Shown piece by piece: positions 8,564-30,407 of a stretch of 31,825 nt of DNA. The stretch is from a virus. Its lineage: Duplodnaviria > Heunggongvirae > Uroviricota > Caudoviricetes. Under the pieces are notes generated by a model that worked only from the letters and a program-made list of their open reading frames with translations, had not been told where the DNA came from and made no database searches. Position numbers and translations under genes: made by a program. The number at the start of each line of letters is the position of its first letter. Position 1 is the stretch's first letter. The stretch lies in IMG/VR virus record IMGVR_UViG_2617270941_000009; one strand, given 5' to 3'.

Positions 8564-8857
8564 ATGAAAAAAATGCTACTCGCTACTGCGCTGGCCCTGC
8601 TTATTACAGGATGTGCTCAACAGACATTTACTGTTCAAAACAAACAGACAGCAGTAGCACCAAAGGAAACCATCACCCATCATTTCTTCGTTTCTGGAAT
8701 TGGGCAGAAGAAAACTGTCGATGCAGCTAAAATTTGTGGCGGCGCAGAAAATGTTGTTAAAACAGAAACCCAGCAAACATTCGTAAATGGATTGCTCGGT
8801 TTTATTACTTTAGGCATTTATACTCCGCTGGAAGCGCGTGTGTATTGCTCAAAATAA
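8564..8857 (+). CDS. bor: Bor lipoprotein (serum resistance, Iss family), lysogenic conversion factor
   Basis: 97-aa translation MKKMLLATALALLITGCAQQTF... with lipobox LITGC, matching lambda Bor/DLP12 BorD; opposite strand to the lysis genes as in lambda. Confidence 0.9.
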   Translation: MKKMLLATALALLITGCAQQTFTVQNKQTAVAPKETITHHFFVSGIGQKKTVDAAKICGGAENVVKTETQQTFVNGLLGFITLGIYTPLEARVYCSK

Positions 8858-10632: not shown

Positions 10633-11715
10633 ATGAAAAAATTAACAGTGGCAATTTCTGCTGTAGCTGCATCAGTACTGATGGCGATGTCTGCTCAGGC
10701 AGCTGAAATTTATAATAAAGACAGTAACAAGCTGGATCTGTACGGGAAAGTTAATGCTAAGCACTACTTCTCCTCTAATGATGCAGATGATGGTGATACT
10801 ACTTATGCCCGTCTTGGCTTCAAAGGTGAAACCCAAATCAACGATCAACTGACTGGTTTCGGTCAGTGGGAATATGAATTCAAAGGCAACCGCGCTGAAT
10901 CTCAAGGTTCCTCCAAAGATAAAACCCGTCTTGCCTTCGCTGGCCTGAAATTCGGTGACTACGGCTCAATCGATTACGGCCGTAACTACGGTGTAGCATA
11001 CGACATCGGTGCGTGGACTGACGTTCTGCCAGAATTCGGTGGCGATACCTGGACCCAAACAGATGTATTCATGACTGGTCGCACCACAGGTGTTGCAACT
11101 TATCGTAACAACGACTTCTTTGGTCTGGTTGATGGCCTGAACTTTGCAGCTCAGTATCAGGGCAAAAATGACCGAAATGAAGTAACTGAAGCTAATGGCG
11201 ATGGTTTCGGTTTCTCAACTACTTATGAGTATGAAGGATTCGGCGTGGGTGCAACCTATGCTAAATCTGATCGCACTAATAATCAGGTTATCTACGGTAA
11301 CAACGGTCTGAATGCTTCTGGTCAAAATGCTGAAGTATGGGCAGCTGGTCTGAAATATGATGCGAACAACATCTATCTGGCCACCACCTATTCTGAAACC
11401 CAGAACATGACTGTTTTTGGTAATAACCATATTGCCAACAAAGCACAAAACTTCGAAGCTGTTGCACAATATCAGTTCGACTTCGGCCTGCGTCCATCCG
11501 TTGCTTACCTGCATTCTAAAGGAAAAGACTTGGGTGTTTGGGGTGATCAGGACCTGGTTGAATATGTTGATGTAGGTGCAACCTATTACTTCAACAAAAA
11601 TATGTCCACTTTTGTTGACTACAAAATCAACCTGATTGATAAGAGCGATTTCACGAAAGCATCTGGCGTTGCTACCGATGATATCGTTGCTGTAGGTATG
11701 GTTTACCAGTTCTAA
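10633..11715 (+). CDS. nmpC: outer membrane porin of the OmpC/OmpF family (NmpC / phage Lc-type), apparently intact
   Basis: 360-aa translation with signal peptide [30 protein letters not shown]..., beta-barrel porin motifs and C-terminal ...VAVGMVYQF. Located between Q and the lysis genes on the opposite strand, as in DLP12. Confidence 0.9.
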
Positions 11716-13777: not shown

Positions 13778-13872
13778 GCTTCACCTCCGCAGAGATCAAA
13801 CGCTGGATGCAAAAAAACGCAGGTGCATTTCTGCATCTGTGGCAAGGCGAGGAGTTCAACTTGTGGTCGCAT
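13774..13872 (-). CDS. small ORF (32 aa) translationally coupled to ninB, YlcH-like; overlaps a conserved duplicated element
   Basis: Untracked [35 protein letters not shown]; TGA overlaps the ninB GTG (GTGA). Coding status uncertain. Confidence 0.35.
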
Positions 13873-13947
13873 ATAATTTCCCAATCATATGCGCAGAAGT
13901 CACCGCAGGGTGTTCAGGCCAACGGTGACGGTATTATTGCTTATTGA

Positions 13948-14199
13948 TTATGATTTTTCAATTTCATCAATAACCTTGTGATAGACAATACCAGAAAGGC
14001 CAACAGACAGTGGATGTTCATGAAATATTGGCTCATTTGCATAAACCCAATGCCCGACAAATTCTTCTGGGCTTGATATGTATAACTCACGAAGAAAATG
14101 GAGATCCCTCTCTACAACTAATTTCGTATCGTCCAAGAGCGCTGCATTTACGCTAGTTTTATGGCTGTGCATTAATTTACATTTGGTGAAGGACATCAT
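13948..14199 (-). CDS. hypothetical protein (83 aa)
   Basis: ORF with strong AAGGAG RBS 8 nt upstream of ATGATG; no family recognised. Confidence 0.45.
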   Translation of the reverse strand: MMSFTKCKLMHSHKTSVNAALLDDTKLVVERDLHFLRELYISSPEEFVGHWVYANEPIFHEHPLSVGLSGIVYHKVIDEIEKS

Positions 14200-14258: not shown

Positions 14259-14873
14259 CTAACGTTGTTTAATAACATTCTGACGCAAATGTGGCAATAC
14301 TCGACTCCACTTATCATCCTGCCACGGCTGGAATTTTACATGTGCCGTTTCTCTGGCGAGGATTGCTCGCGCTCTGGTGAGTATCTGGGGATATTCTTGC
14401 TCGATGGAAGTGAAGCGACCAGCTTCACGATGCTCCGCAACCTGAAGAAGAGGAGTAACGTTCTGGCAGGCGGTTAACATCGCATCCCCAGCTCGCCATA
14501 ACCAAGCAAGTGTGCAAAGTTCGTTATCAGTGAATTGTTTTGTGATCGGGGATTGTTGAACTTCTCGATCGAGAATATCCAGAACCCAGCGGCGGAACTC
14601 TTTGGCTACAGGAGTTCGTGCAAACATGGCGATCAAATGGGCTCCGCGAAGGCTAAATACTCGAGACTCCTGCATTCCACGAGGGGTGGTCACTTTGACC
14701 ACCCTTGTCATCATATCTGTAAATTCATCTGAGTGACGAGAGTAAATGCGCTGAACTGCTTTATCGTCCGCATATTCCAGAGCTAAACCAACTTCAGTGG
14801 CAGTAAGCCAAATTCTGTTATTGTGGCAAATTGGGGTAAACGTCGTTTTGTGGAATGCTAATTGAGTAGTCAT
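14259..14873 (-). CDS. BRO-N domain protein (phage antirepressor-like)
   Basis: 204-aa ORF with GAGGTG RBS; N-terminal region (FTPICHNNRIWLTATEVGLALEY...RWVLDILD) resembles the Bro-N/antirepressor domain. Family call from memory. Confidence 0.55.
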   Translation of the reverse strand: MTTQLAFHKTTFTPICHNNRIWLTATEVGLALEYADDKAVQRIYSRHSDEFTDMMTRVVKVTTPRGMQESRVFSLRGAHLIAMFARTPVAKEFRRWVLDILDREVQQSPITKQFTDNELCTLAWLWRAGDAMLTACQNVTPLLQVAEHREAGRFTSIEQEYPQILTRARAILARETAHVKFQPWQDDKWSRVLPHLRQNVIKQR

Positions 14874-15195: not shown

Positions 15196-15357
15196 CTACC
15201 TCAGGCCAAAACATAACGATTTCCATATCACCTTTAGCCGCCAGACGAATAGAGACTCCCAATTCTGGCTGTCGAAGTAAAACACCGAATGTAAAAAATC
15301 GTAGGTGCATTTCTGCATCTGTGAATGGAGAAGATAGGTTGGATTGTATGTGCGCAT
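15196..15357 (-). CDS. second YlcH-like small ORF (53 aa), paralogous to 13774..13872; alternative to track ORF 15137..15385
   Basis: ORF MRTYNPTYLLHSQMQKCTYDFLHSVF... shares the QMQKCT core and conserved 5' leader with the ylcH-like ORF upstream of ninB. Coding status uncertain. Confidence 0.3.
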   Translation of the reverse strand: MRTYNPTYLLHSQMQKCTYDFLHSVFYFDSQNWESLFVWRLKVIWKSLCFGLR

Positions 15358-15484
15358 AAACGTCCCCGTTTAGCGCAGAAGTCACCGGAGTTGTTCAGGC
15401 TCCGGCTTATTAATATTGCCTACTTACAATTAATTTTTCAACTGTTAGAAACTTATAATTAGCTGTCTCTTTGTAACTATCAAT

Positions 15485-17380
15485 TTAATTATTTTTCTTT
15501 AACTTGAAATTTCTTCCCATTGCTAGTGTTCTTCGAAGATTCGAATCATAAGCTGGTTGATAACATCTATCATAAAAATCCTTAATTGTCTGATGGTAAG
15601 TATCCAGCATCAAACCATAAAACCCCCTGACCTTAAGATAATCCACCAAGGGAAATAAATAATCATCAGTCTGAACATCAGTATCAATATTATTTTTTTG
15701 TTTTTTAACTTCAAATTTGTATAAGTTTAACTCACCCTTATCCATCGTGCATGAAAAAAGGTCGTCAAAAATCAAATCAATTTTTGTCATAGGAACTCGT
15801 TCTTTTCCAGACATTATAGGTAGAATATCAATACCTAAGAGCGAACCTAATACAAAGTCGTAATGAAGCGAAATCACTGAGTCATTCGATGTCGAGTTGC
15901 CTTTGATAAATACTCTACTTAGTGCCGAGTCAAAAACATTCTCAACTCTCTCTCTCGTCATGTTTGCGACATCTACAACCCCCATATCACGAGAAGCTTT
16001 TATTGTGATTTCATCTATAAATGCTTTGGAATCTAGTGAATGTAAAAACAACATGAAGTTATCTAACTGTTCAGAGCATTTAATAGCCACCATAAGATTT
16101 TCGTATATATCTTTTTTATACTCAATCGGTAAATTTGCTACCGCAAAAGCAGCATAAAATTCTTGCACTGATTTATGCAGAAAAACATACCTATTATTTC
16201 CCTCAGGTTGGATAAGGCAAGTTATCTCAATAAGATCATCTATAAAGTTTGATGCATCTTCTTTAAGATAACCTTCTGTTTCAATAGCATCTTCAGCATA
16301 TCTAAGCAACTCTTCTCCCCAAAACTCAAATTTCTCCTCAATCAGTGCGTTATAGCAAATAGCTGAAAAACACAATTTAGCTTTTTCACCAATAATGTTT
16401 GATTTTTTCTCGCGCGTATATACTTTTATTTTATCATGCCTTGCATATAAGGTGTCAAAGAGGCTTCGATAAAACTCTATTATATTATTTGGAATATCAT
16501 TCATATAAGGATAACAATAATACAAAAGAGTAACTAAAATTGGATTGCAAATAGTTCCCTCAAGTTCTTCTTTATCACATAGTAAATCCGCCAAGACTTT
16601 AAACGAGGCATCACTACTTGAGAATCTGTCATTTTTCGATAAAGAATGAAGAATACAAATCTTATCAGAAATATTTAGCTTATCTATAAAAATATTATAC
16701 ACATCAGTAGTATAACATATATCTGTATTTGGTCTCGTTGTTGCGATAATTGGTGTGTTAAAATGATAATGAATGTTTTTTATTTCATTCATCATCATAG
16801 TTCGCTCTTCATGTTTAACCTCATCAAATCCATCCAACATTAAAACGACTCTTTGGGATTGCAGTAATATTTTCAAGCTATCCTCTGAACACCCCACACC
16901 AAATGAATTAAGAATGTCTGCCAGATAAGCAATAATATTTGCATTCTTCACCCTTCTTAATTCAATAAAAAAAGGCATCCGTTCTGATTTTTTTATTTCC
17001 TCGCTAAACAACTTGCGTAAAATAGTACTTTTCCCTTGCCCCGCTATACCGACTATATTTACAATACCATGAAATGGTAAAGTGACCCCATCTTTTATAA
17101 CGACCTTGTCTTTATTAGATGCCACCTCAACAGTTAACGGATAATAAATATCATCTAAAAAAATATCATAATCAGCGTTGTGCAAAGTTCTCATTTTCAG
17201 AGATGGTAGCACATGCTTTCTTAAATAATTTTCTCTTCCGAGGGGATCATTTAATTGTTCGAGTATAACCTTGCCTTCATCTAGGTCCCTAGCCCAAGGT
17301 TTAGAGAGCAATACTTCTGTTATTTTTTCCGCAGCTTTTCCTACTGTGCTATTAATAATAGTCGCAAGAAACTCATCCAT
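15485..17380 (-). CDS. NACHT/STAND-type P-loop NTPase, candidate single-gene anti-phage defence protein
   Basis: Walker A GIAGQGKST; Walker B VVLMLDGFDEV (NACHT-type DGxDE); sensor-1-like IIATTRP; NPILVTLL motif. The track start at 17437 is a TTG; the ATG at 17380 (MDEFLATIINS..., RBS GGTGAAAAA) is preferred, with the ATG at 17416 as an alternative. Markedly AT-rich by eye. Confidence 0.75.
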   Translation of the reverse strand: MDEFLATIINSTVGKAAEKITEVLLSKPWARDLDEGKVILEQLNDPLGRENYLRKHVLPSLKMRTLHNADYDIFLDDIYYPLTVEVASNKDKVVIKDGVTLPFHGIVNIVGIAGQGKSTILRKLFSEEIKKSERMPFFIELRRVKNANIIAYLADILNSFGVGCSEDSLKILLQSQRVVLMLDGFDEVKHEERTMMMNEIKNIHYHFNTPIIATTRPNTDICYTTDVYNIFIDKLNISDKICILHSLSKNDRFSSSDASFKVLADLLCDKEELEGTICNPILVTLLYYCYPYMNDIPNNIIEFYRSLFDTLYARHDKIKVYTREKKSNIIGEKAKLCFSAICYNALIEEKFEFWGEELLRYAEDAIETEGYLKEDASNFIDDLIEITCLIQPEGNNRYVFLHKSVQEFYAAFAVANLPIEYKKDIYENLMVAIKCSEQLDNFMLFLHSLDSKAFIDEITIKASRDMGVVDVANMTRERVENVFDSALSRVFIKGNSTSNDSVISLHYDFVLGSLLGIDILPIMSGKERVPMTKIDLIFDDLFSCTMDKGELNLYKFEVKKQKNNIDTDVQTDDYLFPLVDYLKVRGFYGLMLDTYHQTIKDFYDRCYQPAYDSNLRRTLAMGRNFKLKKNN

Positions 17381-17768
17381 TTTTTCACCACATTCATTAA
17401 CCAATACGTGGTGCATTCTTACAAGACTCAGTAACAATTGTCAATCATAGGTTTTCGCATGATTGCAAAACGCCATAAACAATTGTAGCACCATAATTTT
17501 AAACACTATATAATATACAACCTTCCTACAAGCATTCAGTACATCGCTTAATCACAGGGCTTGAATATATAGTAAGGAATCGATATTAATCACCTCATCT
17601 ACTTTAAACATCTTACACACCTATAATTTATAATAGTCAACACGAGGTCATCATATTAAACATGCAATTACAAACATTCATTTTTATATAAATTTTCATG
17701 ATTTAACCGTAGAGCGACGGTAATAAATTTCATATACAAGGATTTAAGCTCCCATACGTTTTCTATTA

Positions 17769-17948
17769 TTAAAAATAACATACCGTTCGCCAGACCTTAC
17801 CATCAATGACCAGGATTCCTGCCCGCGCCATTTTTGCCGCAGCCTGATTTATGCTGGTTAATGTCACACCTGTTGTCGCAGCAACGTCCGGCGCACAGAA
17901 GCTCTTGTGCGTCCCCAGGTAATGAATAATTGCTTCTTTTCCCGTCAT
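17769..17948 (-). pseudogene. ren: truncated ren (N-terminal 59 codons of lambda Ren, overlapping the P stop), interrupted by the foreign AT-rich cassette
   Basis: Untracked ORF MTGKEAIIHYLGTHKSFCAPDVAATTGVTLTSINQAAAKMARAGILVIDGKVWRTVCYF*; matches the lambda Ren N-terminus then ends prematurely. ATG overlaps the P TGA (ATGA), as in lambda. Confidence 0.7.
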
Positions 17949-18646
17949 ACACTGGCTCCTTTCAGTCCGAACTTAGCTTTGATTTCTGCAATCTTCGCCA
18001 GAGCCTGTGCACGATTTAGAGGTCTACCGCCCATGACAGGAAGTTGTTTTACTGGTTCAGGTATAGCCTCACCACGGTTAATTCTCGCAGTCATATGGGC
18101 AAGTTCATCGGCAGCCTTGCGCCGTAATTCCGAGTCAGTCAACGCATTAGCCCGCATGTTCTGATACAGGTTGGTAACCAGCCAGTAGTGCGCGTTTGAT
18201 TTCCACGGATAAGACTCTGCGTCCGGATACAGGCCACGCTTCCGGCAATACTCGTAAACCATATCAACCAGCTCGCTGGCGTTTGGCAGTCCGGCGGTAA
18301 CGGATGCTTCTTCCCGGCACCATGCAACAAACTGCCCGGGTGATGGCAGAAATGGTCGATTCTGCCGACGGGCTACGCGCATTCCTGCGTTAACCTGTTC
18401 CATCGTGGTGATCCCGTTTTCCCGAAAAGCCAGAACCCACTGGCGACGGATTTCGTTCACTTCGTTCTGGTCACGGTTAGCCAGGCTCGCCGGGAAAGTT
18501 GCCAGTAACTGGCTGAACACACCGTTGATGATCTGCGCTACCTGCTGTACCTGCGGCTTTTCGTCGTACTGTTCCGGCATGTTGTTGGCGATCCGACGCA
18601 TCTGCTCACGGTCAAAGTTAACCATCTGTGCGGCGATGTTTTTCAT
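17945..18646 (-). CDS. P: replication protein P (DnaB helicase loader)
   Basis: 233-aa translation near-identical to remembered lambda P (MKNIAAQMVNFDREQMRRIANNMPEQYDEKPQVQQ...). Confidence 0.95.
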   Translation of the reverse strand: MKNIAAQMVNFDREQMRRIANNMPEQYDEKPQVQQVAQIINGVFSQLLATFPASLANRDQNEVNEIRRQWVLAFRENGITTMEQVNAGMRVARRQNRPFLPSPGQFVAWCREEASVTAGLPNASELVDMVYEYCRKRGLYPDAESYPWKSNAHYWLVTNLYQNMRANALTDSELRRKAADELAHMTARINRGEAIPEPVKQLPVMGGRPLNRAQALAKIAEIKAKFGLKGASV

Positions 18647-19542
18647 AGATCCACCCCGTAAATCCAGTCTGTGTTTGTCAGGTCGAGTTTTGGTTTGCTG
18701 GCTGTCACGCCTGCCTGTTGCTTGTTACGGTTGATTTCGAGTTGGGTCCACTTATCGCGGAGTTTGGCCGGGCTCAGCACGTTACCGGACCAGAAGTTGT
18801 CCTGGCATGCCCAGCGGAACAGCACGCACATGTCGCGGTGGTTACGTCCGTCACGTTCACGCATCAGGCGGATATCGTTAGCCCACCCAGCAAAATTCGG
18901 TTTTCTGGCTGATGGTGCGATAGTCTTCACCATGTCAAACATCCACTCTGCGGCGGTCAGGTCTTCTGCTGTCCCCCACTTGCTGCCGCTCTGAATTGCA
19001 GCATCCGGTTTCACCACAGAAAGGTCGTTTTCTGGCTGGTCAGAGGATTCGCCAGAATTCTCTGACGAATAATCTTTTCTTTTTTCTTTTGTAATAGTGT
19101 CTTTTGTGTCCCCCTGTTTTGAGGGATAGCAATCCCCCAATTTGAGGGATGTTTTATCCCTCGTTTTAGGGGATTTTCCCTCGTTTTGAGGGATGCACCA
19201 TTCTGAGATGTTTTTATTTGGTCCAAACATGCCGCCTTGCTGCTTGATAATATTCATTCTGACGAGTTCTAACTTGGCTTCATTGCACCGTTTGACGGGT
19301 AACTTTGTAATCTCGCTAAGTTGAGAATCGGTGATTCTGTCCATTGGTTTATTCCACCCATAGGTTTTACGCAGAATGGCAAGCAGCACTTTAAACTGTC
19401 GCTTGGTCAGATCTGCGCCCGAATAAGCCTCAAGCAGCATATTTGATAGTCTGGCGTAACCATCATCGAGATCTGCCACATTACGCTCCTGTCCGGCAAA
19501 GTTACCTCTGCCGAAGTTGAGTATTTTTGCTGTATTTGTCAT
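18643..19542 (-). CDS. O: replication initiator protein O
   Basis: 299-aa translation near-identical to remembered lambda O (MTNTAKILNFGRGNFAGQERNVADLDDGYARLSNMLLEAY...). Confidence 0.95.
   Translation of the reverse strand: MTNTAKILNFGRGNFAGQERNVADLDDGYARLSNMLLEAYSGADLTKRQFKVLLAILRKTYGWNKPMDRITDSQLSEITKLPVKRCNEAKLELVRMNIIKQQGGMFGPNKNISEWCIPQNEGKSPKTRDKTSLKLGDCYPSKQGDTKDTITKEKRKDYSSENSGESSDQPENDLSVVKPDAAIQSGSKWGTAEDLTAAEWMFDMVKTIAPSARKPNFAGWANDIRLMRERDGRNHRDMCVLFRWACQDNFWSGNVLSPAKLRDKWTQLEINRNKQQAGVTASKPKLDLTNTDWIYGVDL
19110..19196. other. ori: ori-lambda: four iterons (TCCCTCAAAACGAGGGA-type repeats) inside the O gene, with adjacent AT-rich region
   Basis: Repeats ccctgttttgaggga / atcccccaatttgaggga / atccctcgttttagggga / tccctcgttttgaggga seen; AT-rich block at ~19060..19105. 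Confidence 0.85.
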
Positions 19543-19980: not shown

Positions 19981-19987
19981 GAATGTC

Positions 19988-21343
<1,356 letters not shown>

Positions 21344-21538: not shown

Positions 21539-21696
21539 AGCATTCAAAGCAGAAGGCTTTGGGGTGTGTGATACGAAACGAAGCATTGGCCGGAAGTGCG
21601 AATCCGGATTAGCTGCAAATGAGCCAATCGTGGGGTGTTTTCGTTCAGGACTACGACTCACACACACCACCAAAGCTAACTGACAAGAGAATCCAG

Positions 21697-22020
21697 ATGG
21701 ATGCACAAACACGCCGCCGCGAACGTCGCGCAGAGAAACAGGCTCAATGGAAAGCAGCAAATCCCCTGTTGGTTGGGGTAAGCGCAAAACCAGTTAACCG
21801 CCCTATTCTCTCGCTGAATCGCAAACCGAAATCACGAGTAGAAAGCGCACTGAATCCGATAGACCTTACGGTGCTGGCTGAATACCACGAACAGATTGAA
21901 AGCAACCTGCAACGTATTGAGCGCAAGAATCATCGAGTTTGGTATAGCAAGCCAAGTGAGTTCGGTATAACTTGTCAAGGAAGACAAAAGGTTAAAGGGA
22001 AATCCATTCCATTGGCATGA
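21697..22020 (+). CDS. N: antiterminator protein N
   Basis: Translation from the ATG at 21697 (MDAQTRRRERRAEKQAQWKAANPLLVGVSAKPVNRPILSLNRKPKSRVESALNPIDLTVLAEYH...) matches lambda N; the track ORF starts upstream. Confidence 0.9.
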   Translation: MDAQTRRRERRAEKQAQWKAANPLLVGVSAKPVNRPILSLNRKPKSRVESALNPIDLTVLAEYHEQIESNLQRIERKNHRVWYSKPSEFGITCQGRQKVKGKSIPLA

Positions 22021-22028
22021 GGTACGTA

Positions 22029-22898
22029 ATGAAGAAAATTGATTACAAGTCCATACCAAAACCAATAGACTCAGCATCAGAGCGAAAAAAACACAAAAAA
22101 GAGGCTGAAAAATTAGCAAATTATATCAGTTTTATTAGAAACAATGCTCACGGCGATGGCGACAGGAAGTTGCTTTCAGATGCCCGGACCCAAGCGTTCA
22201 GTATACTTCGTAAGCAGATGCAATATCGTCTTCATCCAGGCTACATAATTGAAATTCGCCCGACTGAAAGACAATTGTTCTTATTAAACTCTGTCTTTGA
22301 CTTTGTAAACGTAGTTGGAGATCTTATCGACAGGTCTGTAGATAAGGCTCCTGATACAAATAGTTTTCTTCTAACAAATAAAGAATACTTATATGGTAAA
22401 TTTGGTATAAACGGATGGCAAAAATATGTACGATTCTTACGTGCATTCGTTGATGCGTATAAAAATTCCGACATGATTTATACATATTTGCCTGGTGGTG
22501 ATAATTGTACGCTTTCGGCAGACAATAGAATATTCATACCTATACTTGGTCTTGGGCTGATTAATGCAGTAAATGAAAGAGATGTTATAATTGTTAAGCA
22601 GTGGCGAAAGCATGAGGGATATAGATATCTGCCATGCTTTGATATATTAAAAATACAGAATAAATTCTATGTAAAAATTAAATATAAAGAAGATGTTTTC
22701 TTCCTCAGAAAAAACAAAGATCTTTTACAAGAACTTTCTGGGACAATAGATGTCATCGTAGGTTCTAGGTTTATAAAAGAACTGAAAGAAAGCAGGTCTT
22801 TCTCTCGTGTAGAGATAAGCGAGTCAGAGTTATGGGGTATATCAAATAATCCTGTAAACCACGCTCACCAACGAAATCCAAACAAAAAGTGGTCATAA
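22029..22898 (+). CDS. hypothetical protein (289 aa), AT-rich orphan gene at the ral/sieB hotspot; candidate superinfection-exclusion or abortive-infection factor
   Basis: ORF immediately after N (the track ATG at 22017 overlaps the N stop; the ATG at 22029 with GAGG RBS is preferred). Strongly AT-rich by eye; no catalytic motif recognised; followed by an intrinsic terminator. Confidence 0.55.
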   Translation: MKKIDYKSIPKPIDSASERKKHKKEAEKLANYISFIRNNAHGDGDRKLLSDARTQAFSILRKQMQYRLHPGYIIEIRPTERQLFLLNSVFDFVNVVGDLIDRSVDKAPDTNSFLLTNKEYLYGKFGINGWQKYVRFLRAFVDAYKNSDMIYTYLPGGDNCTLSADNRIFIPILGLGLINAVNERDVIIVKQWRKHEGYRYLPCFDILKIQNKFYVKIKYKEDVFFLRKNKDLLQELSGTIDVIVGSRFIKELKESRSFSRVEISESELWGISNNPVNHAHQRNPNKKWS

Positions 22899-29140: not shown

Positions 29141-29359
29141 ATGTACTTGACACTTCAGGAGTGGAACGCTCGCCAGCGACGCCCAAGAAGCCTTGAAACA
29201 GTTCGTCGATGGGTGCGCGAATGCAGGATATTCCCTCCTCCGGTTAAGGATGGAAGAGAATATCTGTTCCACGAATCAGCGGTAAAGGTTGACTTAAATC
29301 GACCAGTAACAGGTAGCCTTTTGAAGAGGATCAGAAATGGGAAGAAGGCGAAGTCATGA
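29141..29359 (+). CDS. xis: excisionase Xis
   Basis: 72-aa translation MYLTLQEWNARQRRPRSLETVRRWVRECRIFPPPVKDGREYLFHESAVKVDLNRPVTGSLLKRIRNGKKAKS matches lambda Xis. Confidence 0.95.
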   Translation: MYLTLQEWNARQRRPRSLETVRRWVRECRIFPPPVKDGREYLFHESAVKVDLNRPVTGSLLKRIRNGKKAKS

Positions 29360-30407
29360 GCGCCGGGATTTACCCCCTAACCTTTATATAAGAAACAATG
29401 GATATTACTGCTACAGGGACCCAAGGACGGGTAAAGAGTTTGGATTAGGCCGAGACAGGCGAATCGCAATCACTGAAGCTATACAGGCCAACATTGAGTT
29501 ATTTTCAGGACACAAACACAAGCCTCTGACAGCGAGAATCAACAGTGATAATTCCGTTACGTTACATTCATGGCTTGATCGCTACGAAAAAATCCTGGCC
29601 AGCAGAGGAATCAAGCAGAAGACACTCATAAATTACATGAGCAAAATTAAAGCAATAAGGAGGGGTCTGCCTGATGCTCCACTTGAAGACATCACCACAA
29701 AAGAAATTGCGGCAATGCTCAATGGATACATAGACGAGGGCAAGGCGGCGTCAGCCAAGTTAATCAGATCAACACTGAGCGATGCATTCCGAGAGGCTAT
29801 AGCTGAAGGCCATATAACAACAAACCCGGTCGCAGCCACTCGCGCTGCAAAATCAGAGGTAAGGAGATCAAGACTTACGGCTGACGAATACCTGAAAATT
29901 TATCAAGCAGCAGAATCATCACCATGTTGGCTTAGACTTGCAATGGAACTGGCTGTTGTTACCGGGCAGCGAGTTGGTGATTTATGCGAAATGAAGTGGT
30001 CTGATATCGTAGATGGATATCTTTATGTCGAGCAAAGCAAAACAGGCGTAAAAATTGCCATCCCAACAACATTGCATGTTGATGCTCTCGGGATATCAAT
30101 GAAGGAAACACTTGATAAATGCAAAAAGATTCTTGGCGGAGAAACCATAATTACATCTACTCGTCGTGAACCGCTTTCATCCGGCACAGTATCAAGGTAT
30201 TTTATGCGCGCACGAAAAGCATCAGGTCTCTCCTTCGAAGGGGATCCGCCAACCTTTCACGAGTTGCGCAGTTTGTCTGCAAGACTCTATGAGAAGCAGA
30301 TAAGCGATAAATTTGCTCAACATCTTCTCGGGCATAAGTCGGACACCATGGCATCACAGTATCGTGATGACAGAGGCAGGGAGTGGGACAAAATTGAAAT
30401 CAAATAA
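29337..30407 (+). CDS. int: tyrosine integrase Int (lambda type)
   Basis: 356-aa translation MGRRRSHERRDLPPNLYIRNNGYYCYRDPRTGKEFGLGRDRRIAITEAIQ... matches lambda Int; overlaps xis as in lambda. Confidence 0.95.
   Translation: MGRRRSHERRDLPPNLYIRNNGYYCYRDPRTGKEFGLGRDRRIAITEAIQANIELFSGHKHKPLTARINSDNSVTLHSWLDRYEKILASRGIKQKTLINYMSKIKAIRRGLPDAPLEDITTKEIAAMLNGYIDEGKAASAKLIRSTLSDAFREAIAEGHITTNPVAATRAAKSEVRRSRLTADEYLKIYQAAESSPCWLRLAMELAVVTGQRVGDLCEMKWSDIVDGYLYVEQSKTGVKIAIPTTLHVDALGISMKETLDKCKKILGGETIITSTRREPLSSGTVSRYFMRARKASGLSFEGDPPTFHELRSLSARLYEKQISDKFAQHLLGHKSDTMASQYRDDRGREWDKIEIK

Follow-up and report, generated by a model that had tools for sequence, protein, structure and literature searches.

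The NACHT gene and its product

The window, which is the whole stretch of 31,825 nucleotides in IMG/VR record IMGVR_UViG_2617270941_000009, is a lambdoid prophage adjoining ybhC, with an integrase gene at 29337..30407. An AT-rich cassette in its early-right region, next to a truncated ren gene, holds one gene for a NACHT-type nucleoside triphosphatase (NTPase). The product is probably a short NLR-related protein that belongs to bNACHT clade 14 (the type of bNACHT01 and bNACHT11) and acts by abortive infection in the manner of bNACHT11, with a lambda-like prophage carrying its gene as a one-gene moron. The gene, the cassette and the adjoining genes have the following features.

15485..17380, minus strand: the NACHT gene, credibly of bNACHT clade 14; 631 amino acids (aa) plus stop
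17201..17380, minus strand: N-terminal extension, residues 1-60 (MDEFLATI...); four short helices in the model, putative effector region
16031..17200, minus strand: NACHT module, residues 61-450 (NBD, HD1, WHD, HD2), delimited by Pfam, Foldseek and invariant columns
17024..17050, minus strand: Walker A GIAGQGKST, residues 111-119, from translation; K117 corresponds to K115 of bNACHT01 and bNACHT11
16817..16849, minus strand: Walker B VVLMLDGFDEV, residues 178-188, from translation; D183, D186 and E187 invariant
16733..16741, minus strand: TTR sensor-1, residues 214-216, from translation; R216 aligns with R214 of bNACHT11
15488..16030, minus strand: C-terminal SNaCT domain, putative sensor of phage proteins
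15405..17775, minus strand: AT-rich cargo cassette, 2371 bp, one gene plus leader, GC 0.323; left edge at lambda identity (17776), right edge at the ninB-upstream element (15404)
17381..17775, minus strand: AT-rich non-coding leader, 395 bp, GC 0.30; open reading frames (ORFs) of at most 37 aa only, no Rfam family match
17415..17444, minus strand: candidate sigma-70 promoter TTGACA-18-AAGAAT with TG; 10/12 matches, top-scoring of 21 sites
17769..17948, minus strand: truncated ren of 59 codons, of which the cassette provides the final ones and the stop
17945..18646, minus strand: lambda-type P
18643..19542, minus strand: lambda-type O
15280..15404, minus strand: conserved ~125-bp ninB-upstream element with hairpin CCGGAG..CTCCGG; right boundary of the slot, 94-95% identical to the sequence just 5' of ybcN/ninB in two other loci (L002, L003)

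The minus-strand ORF 15485..17437 is intact. An earlier, sequence-only reading of this DNA had described it as an ORF of 631-650 aa on the early-right operon strand, and this is borne out. A TTG start gives 650 aa; an ATG at 17380, with GGTGA just 5' of it, gives 631 aa and a stop. The true start is almost certainly ATG 17380. All 48 aligned homologues start with M-D/E exactly at this position, and in orthologues of ~62% identity a leader alignment showed similarity 5' of the ATG to be limited to the ribosome-binding site. PGAP also calls the 631-aa product from ATG 17380 (WP_024239936.1), and the exact window protein is present in NCBI under the name "NACHT domain-containing protein". The 650-aa (TTG 17437) and 643-aa (ATG) starts were rejected: the N-termini of the family line up with Met20 of the long ORF, and the extreme N-terminus is functionally critical in bNACHT11. 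The longer versions would also enclose the promoter-like site, which argues for the 17380 start.

Judged from its sequence and predicted fold, the window protein contains a genuine NACHT NTPase module in which every catalytic motif is present. Pfam NACHT (PF05729) matched residues 107-218 with 43.9 bits against a gathering cut-off of 26.7 (expectation value, E, 3e-11). It is the only Pfam model above the curated threshold for the window protein, and 48/48 aligned family members match it. Translation confirmed the four motifs that had been picked out at first, GIAGQGKST, VVLMLDGFDEV, TTR and NPILVTLL, the last of these being residues 279-286. Walker A (G111-T119, with K117), Walker B (D183, D186, E187) and the sensor-1 residue R216 are invariant in the 48-sequence alignment, as are many further positions up to residue ~450, and the window protein has every invariant family residue. 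The initial NACHT/STAND assignment is upheld by the profile match, by these invariant motifs and by the predicted fold.

A fold was predicted with AlphaFold2 on the 48-sequence alignment (A1). The model (pLDDT 87.9, pTM 0.86) has a confident P-loop NBD-HD1-WHD fold, preceded by N-terminal helices at residues 3-9, 12-26, 31-44 and 46-61. The ~110 aa before the P-loop, to which no function had been given, resolve into the family's conserved short N-terminal extension, the putative effector, and the N-terminal strands of the NBD. A Foldseek search of the PDB returned the animal NLRs NOD2, NLRC4, NAIP/NLRC4 and NLRP3 on top (E 1e-12 to 1e-8; ~450-470 columns aligned), far ahead of ORC/Cdc6 and Avs4. 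The likeness to animal NLRs (NLRC4, NOD2, NAIP, NLRP3) lies in the NBD-HD1-WHD-HD2 fold (E 1e-12, ~460 columns, TM ~0.5). The sequence identity to them, however, is 13-18%, and the window protein is much shorter and lacks LRR, CARD, PYD and BIR domains. Pfam found nothing at E up to 10 in the isolated N- and C-terminal regions. A sequence search of the PDB gave no match, the set searched being one that does not include the bNACHT11 structure 9ORF.

The fold results also bear on whether the protein could be a STAND NTPase of some other defence family, Avs/AVAST-like or KAP/other P-loop, that looks like NACHT only superficially. Weak sub-threshold Pfam matches to NB-ARC, nSTAND3 and AAA_16 speak for this, and Avs4 does appear in the fold list with E 1e-5. 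However, NACHT is the sole Pfam model above its cut-off, the animal NACHT proteins beat Avs4 by seven orders of magnitude (TM 0.5 vs 0.23), and the identity to bNACHT11 reaches 41%. Unlike Avs/AVAST proteins, the window protein has no repeat/TPR sensor and no enzymatic N-terminal domain, and it has no PADLOC Avs match. These comparisons effectively refute the idea, which retains only a very slight probability.

Comparison with tested bNACHT proteins and the SNaCT domain

A database search placed the window protein in a family of 620-640-aa gammaproteobacterial proteins. Clade 14 comprises the bNACHT01-like short NACHT proteins as defined by Kibby et al. (10.1101/2022.07.19.500537). Four of these, bNACHT01, 02, 11 and 12, were each cloned singly with the native promoter and gave phage defence; the Walker A lysine is needed for defence, and the SNaCT region diversifies fast (10.1101/2022.07.19.500537). 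bNACHT01 targets T4, T5 and T6, bNACHT12 targets T4, T6 and MS2, and bNACHT02 targets MS2 and T7 (10.1101/2022.07.19.500537).

Comparisons with the tested proteins used the first ~400 residues, taken from Table S2 of Kibby et al. and the strain table of the bNACHT11 preprint. With bNACHT11, residues 1-403 are collinear from Met1 at 41% identity (E 4e-101). The identities to bNACHT02 (37%), bNACHT12 (35%) and bNACHT01 (38%) likewise extend over ~400 aa, collinear from residue 1. Comparisons with clade-14 members gave E 1e-86 to 1e-101, and the short bNACHT04, which is of another type, shares only 24% identity with the window protein. Membership in clade 14, as placed by this pairwise homology, is therefore credible. 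No tested bNACHT is an orthologue of the window protein, the identity being at most 41% over the ~400 comparable residues.

bNACHT11 (Klebsiella pneumoniae, WP_114260439.1, 639 aa) is the closest guide to function. It too is a single gene for a protein of ~630-640 aa, with a Walker A lysine, an ATP-contacting arginine, a short N-terminal extension starting M-D and a C-terminal domain of the SNaCT type. Its residues K115 and R214 contact ATP in the structure determined by cryo-electron microscopy (cryo-EM) (10.1101/2024.12.17.629029), and these align with K117 and R216 of the window protein. The comparison is limited to the first ~400 aa, which excludes the beta-augmentation strand and the C-terminal docking tail. 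There are also differences. The strong divergence of the window SNaCT makes different triggers probable. The window gene is prophage-borne in the lambda early-right region; the available part of the bNACHT11 source gives no prophage context. Third, bNACHT11 starts with MDPIT and the window protein with MDEFL, keeping the Met-Asp of the consensus and replacing Pro3 with Glu.

The architecture is also shared by bNACHT01 (K. pneumoniae MGH 35, 609 aa), bNACHT12 (E. coli, 612 aa) and bNACHT02 (E. coli ECOR34, 634 aa), which give single-gene defence from their own native promoters. They differ in belonging to other subclades than the window protein, and bNACHT01 lies beside a CBASS system in a chromosomal defence island, not in a prophage.

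The C-terminal 180 residues form a divergent SNaCT domain and are the putative sensor. A profile of nine sequences from the window subclade, covering residues 452-631, was used as the hhalign query. It matched the 639-aa group with 99.9% probability, the 623-aa group with 99.3% and the SNaCT1-positive group with 96.3% (103 columns). SNaCT1 itself is matched by 19/48 family members. A model of the domain alone (pLDDT 91.5) is alpha/beta and without repeats, ending in a long final helix and a short flexible tail. The region after the NTPase core had been estimated as a sensor of ~250 aa, and this figure is corrected to the ~180 aa of the SNaCT domain.

The SNaCT domain has diverged faster than the NTPase. 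Mean pairwise identity within the subclade is 0.43 in SNaCT and 0.70-0.74 in the NACHT module; over all 48 sequences the values are 0.20 and 0.48-0.56. The same trend appears at the finest scale, among eight alleles with 99.5% identity or more (the window, L001, L009-L013 and L015). All five nonsynonymous polymorphisms (5/5) fall in SNaCT, at residues 533, 544, 585, 587 and 606, and codon 587 occurs in three states (F, G and V). The N-terminal extension and NACHT module have zero amino-acid changes, and the five synonymous differences among the same alleles are scattered over the gene. SNaCT makes up 29% of the residues, and the chance of a 5/5 outcome is ~0.002 by our own arithmetic on this small sample.

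The cargo slot, the leader and the distribution of the gene

The cassette is sharply bounded. Its GC content is 0.323 (15405..17775) against 0.476 and 0.498 in the flanks, and GC along the sequence is 0.28-0.36 over about 15400-17770 and 0.45-0.57 on either side; the AT-richness noticed at first sight is thus confirmed. BLASTN against phage lambda showed 98% identity from window position 19981 to 17776 (lambda 38247-40452). The identity spans nutR, cII, O and P as well as ren up to codon ~58, and breaks off abruptly at 17776. The ORF 17769..17948 does have the 59 codons after which ren had been said to be cut off. In an identical locus PGAP annotates "protein ren, incomplete, missing C-terminus", and no ren 3' end reappears downstream of the cassette. 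As read from the DNA, then, ren is truncated by replacement with the cassette.

The cassette contains a single ORF, the leader ORFs being at most 37 aa, and the neighboring genes differ between loci. The slot is bounded by ren on one side and the ninB-like ybcN on the other. In E. coli NADC1036 its contents are a gene annotated as TagO and some hypotheticals; in phage PhiR30_1, which has a complete ren, they are genes for an acyltransferase and a lipoprotein. Thus an insertion hotspot, as first proposed, is supported by this other cargo, but its far boundary is the ninB-like ybcN, not ninA. The NACHT gene resembles the other morons between ren and ninB in occupying a variable early-right cargo position that holds unrelated genes in each phage.

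The ninB-upstream element carries, besides its hairpin CCGGAG..CTCCGG, the block TGACTTCTGCGC, and is present as a single copy in L002 and L003. In the window a second copy lies at 13798..13919, with 74% identity to the copy at 15280..15404. The two bracket a second cargo module, consisting of a Bro-N/P22AR-C antirepressor-like gene (14259..14873) and an 83-aa ORF (13948..14199). From this arrangement the element looks like a recombination linker that marks the boundaries of cargo slots.

Lambda itself carries only the tR2 terminator at the slot position. This terminator (GGCCTGCTGGTAATCGCAGGCC followed by a T-run; lambda 40570..40644, L008 3072..3144) sits exactly in the replaced slot, and no equivalent intrinsic terminator was found between P/ren' and the nin genes in the window lineage. 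A hairpin in the 3' region was considered as an intrinsic terminator and excluded, since its RNA fold has z = -1.3 and no T-run follows.

The leader had been described as a 500-bp region with its own regulated promoter. It is 331 bp to the TTG and 395 bp (17381..17775) to the real ATG. The TTGACA noticed at 17439..17444 is present and belongs to the most promoter-like site of the region, which would initiate ~30 nucleotides 5' of the ATG. A promoter of the NACHT gene's own at 17415..17444 is plausible, and only suggestive because such sites are common in AT-rich DNA (21 in the region vs 12.9 +/- 3.4 expected). It would fit expression in the lysogen while pR is repressed. The regulatory part of the claim rested on a 7-bp inverted repeat, caatcat/atgattg. 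The repeat is present, but as an operator it was rejected: the same 2.5 kb contains 29 inverted repeats of 7 bp or longer, and this one stands outside the top 25, at chance level. The promoter part survives as a plausible site that is not conserved. An Rfam scan of the cassette and leader gave nothing credible.

The 90% NCBI cluster of the window protein counts 382 members, which come from E. coli, Salmonella and E. marmotae. Among 5426 complete E. coli genomes the cassette occurs in 9, with ren' and P always adjoining. Seven IMG/VR proviruses share the ren'-NACHT junction in varying surroundings, with O at 67% or 98% identity, with or without the antirepressor module, and with different Q alleles. 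A shared junction amid such differing modules points to a single capture and a later spread by modular recombination. More distant alleles occupy a corresponding position. Orthologues of ~62% identity, in an Enterobacter cloacae prophage and in metagenomic proviruses, lie 3' of the replication genes and 5' of nin/Q on the same strand, and a homologue of ~40% identity (L019) is likewise found between the replication genes and nin/Q on the same strand.

In the E. cloacae prophage (L004, 2841..9905), O/P are followed by an integrase fragment, an FRG protein, a Ser/Thr-kinase-like protein, a divergent KAP-family NTPase and then the 62% NACHT orthologue. The slot there resembles a small defence islet of several genes within a prophage.

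The position of the gene raises the question of whether it serves the phage's own cycle, being transcribed from pR on induction or infection and either excluding co-infecting phages or aiding controlled killing of the host. The gene is directly 3' of O, P and ren on the same strand, and all three diverged alleles keep this post-replication position and orientation. Lambda tR2 is missing here and no terminator-like site was found between ren' and the gene, so read-through from pR on induction is possible. A CARD-NLR-like system, which reportedly controls the release of gene transfer agents, would be a precedent. Against such a role, the validated relatives are not phage-borne and act as defence genes from their native promoters in uninfected cells, a good promoter-like site lies 5' of the window gene, and the diversification of the sensor domain suits an arms race with foreign phages. 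A role in the phage's own cycle is accordingly considered improbable.

Another speculative and improbable reading is that the replication-nin junction is a dedicated defence hotspot which has repeatedly captured clade-14 bNACHT genes. The window protein would then belong to a prophage-adapted subclade tuned to temperate competitors or to the prophage's own induction, with dual expression from its own promoter and, tR2 being gone, from pR. If so, its trigger spectrum or its solution to self-immunity would differ from that of bNACHT11.

Other parts of the prophage carry additional variable genes. Lambda identity ends at 19981, and adjoining it are cro/cI-like genes, one within 19988..20338 on the minus strand and the other at 20310..20942 on the plus strand. 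They are presumably of the phage 434 immunity type. A 158-aa ORF (20867..21343) overlaps the cI ORF at its 3' end, the position of rexAB in lambda, and a 293-aa ORF (22017..22898, plus strand) directly follows the N gene (21619..22020, Pfam N36); neither has a Pfam or PADLOC match, and the position of the second may be another moron site. An Iss/Bor-type serum-survival lipoprotein gene (8564..8857) and an OmpC-like porin gene (10633..11715), both named through 98.6% identity to the annotated locus L001, sit among the lysis/Q genes on the opposite strand, and are thus further lysogenic-conversion cargo.

Proposed mechanism and significance

In bNACHT11, the SNaCT domain binds several unrelated small phage proteins by beta-augmentation and a hydrophobic patch (S518, I549 and I553), and this binding together with ATP leads to a heptameric wheel (10.1101/2024.12.17.629029). 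Its N-terminal extension of ~45 residues (MDPIT...), unresolved in the structure, leads to plasmolysis and abortive infection, and the substitutions D2A and P3A each abolish protection (10.1101/2024.12.17.629029).

The window protein has the corresponding domain architecture, ATP-binding residues, N-terminal helical extension and diversifying sensor. By homology to bNACHT11, trigger binding, oligomerization and membrane/osmotic killing would follow. In the lysogen the gene's own promoter would yield a small amount of the protein, which would stay monomeric. Upon infection by another phage, one or more small phage proteins would bind the SNaCT domain, and the ATP-bound NACHT modules would assemble into a ring. 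The ring would cluster the N-terminal extensions at the membrane, osmotic homeostasis would collapse in plasmolysis, and the cell would die before the invader finishes its cycle. Such abortive infection would shield sibling lysogens, hence the prophage.

Abortive infection encoded by prophages is an established concept, lambda RexAB and BstA being examples. These are unrelated to the window protein in sequence and mechanism, and a self-immunity element was not identified here. The proposal that the locus is a single-gene anti-phage defence stands as regards the one-gene cassette; the defence itself is the documented role of the bNACHT01/02/11/12 family and by analogy would extend to the window gene.

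Several observations weigh against a bNACHT11-like abortive infection gene. Position 3 is Glu, while Pro3 is needed in bNACHT11. Some alleles appear damaged: Walker A GQGKST is changed to GQWKST in the cluster representative P0001, the allele in IMG/VR provirus L014 (6001-7894) is frameshifted, and cluster members P0125-P0134 are truncated, some possibly at contig ends. Pfam SNaCT1 (PF22710) gave no direct match at E up to 10, with either the whole protein or the isolated C-terminus. The PADLOC v2 and NCBIfam profiles gave P-loop noise only, with no matching PADLOC model. Lastly, the candidate promoter is not conserved in the ~62% orthologues, in whose leader alignment nothing is kept beyond the ribosome-binding site and start codon.

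The first of these observations would also be expected if the gene were inert in this host, hitch-hiking or decaying, with an MDE rather than an MDP N-terminus that no longer kills. The rarity of the cassette in complete E. coli genomes, the damaged alleles and the heavily decayed prophage that surrounds the gene in locus H1 all favor this explanation. The window ORF, however, is intact over 631 codons and keeps all invariant family residues, and the near-identical alleles are free of amino-acid changes in the N-terminal extension and NACHT module. An MDE or MDA start is common to the window subclade, down to orthologues of 61% identity, which argues that the N-terminal motif is maintained. 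The active bNACHT01 (MDIIQ) and bNACHT12 (MDLVF) likewise lack Pro3. Inertness is thus considered unlikely, and a bNACHT11-like defence remains the probable function.

Earlier work has already described the family together with its domain names, anti-phage function and cryo-EM-based structural mechanism. The window gene is a diverged family member and not a new kind of system, contrary to the suggestion that the protein class might be undescribed. What is modestly new is the recurrent lambdoid position in three alleles (100%, ~62% and ~40% identity), the non-Pro N-terminal motif with Glu at position 3, the divergence of SNaCT beyond current hidden Markov models, and the micro-evolutionary signal in SNaCT. 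Neither the window allele nor its lambdoid location turned up in the literature examined, and a search for WP_024239936 returned no paper. A study of E. coli prophage defence systems by Brenes & Laub (2025) reportedly includes prophage-encoded STANDs, and the window gene or a close allele may have been tested there.

The current picture of bacterial NLRs is unchanged by the window gene. It does expose an annotation gap: the subclade is missed by the PADLOC v2 models used here, its sensor is missed by Pfam SNaCT1, and in PHROGs the family (phrog_18297, E 1e-55) stands as "unknown function". It also places an NLR-like gene, probably for abortive infection, within lambda O-P-ren, the best-studied of phage backbones, and defines the boundaries of the slot into which such cargo is swapped. 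The locus would therefore be a convenient system for asking whether MDPIT can do without Pro3, what phage proteins are recognized by a naturally polymorphic SNaCT, and by what means an induced prophage keeps from setting off its own NLR.

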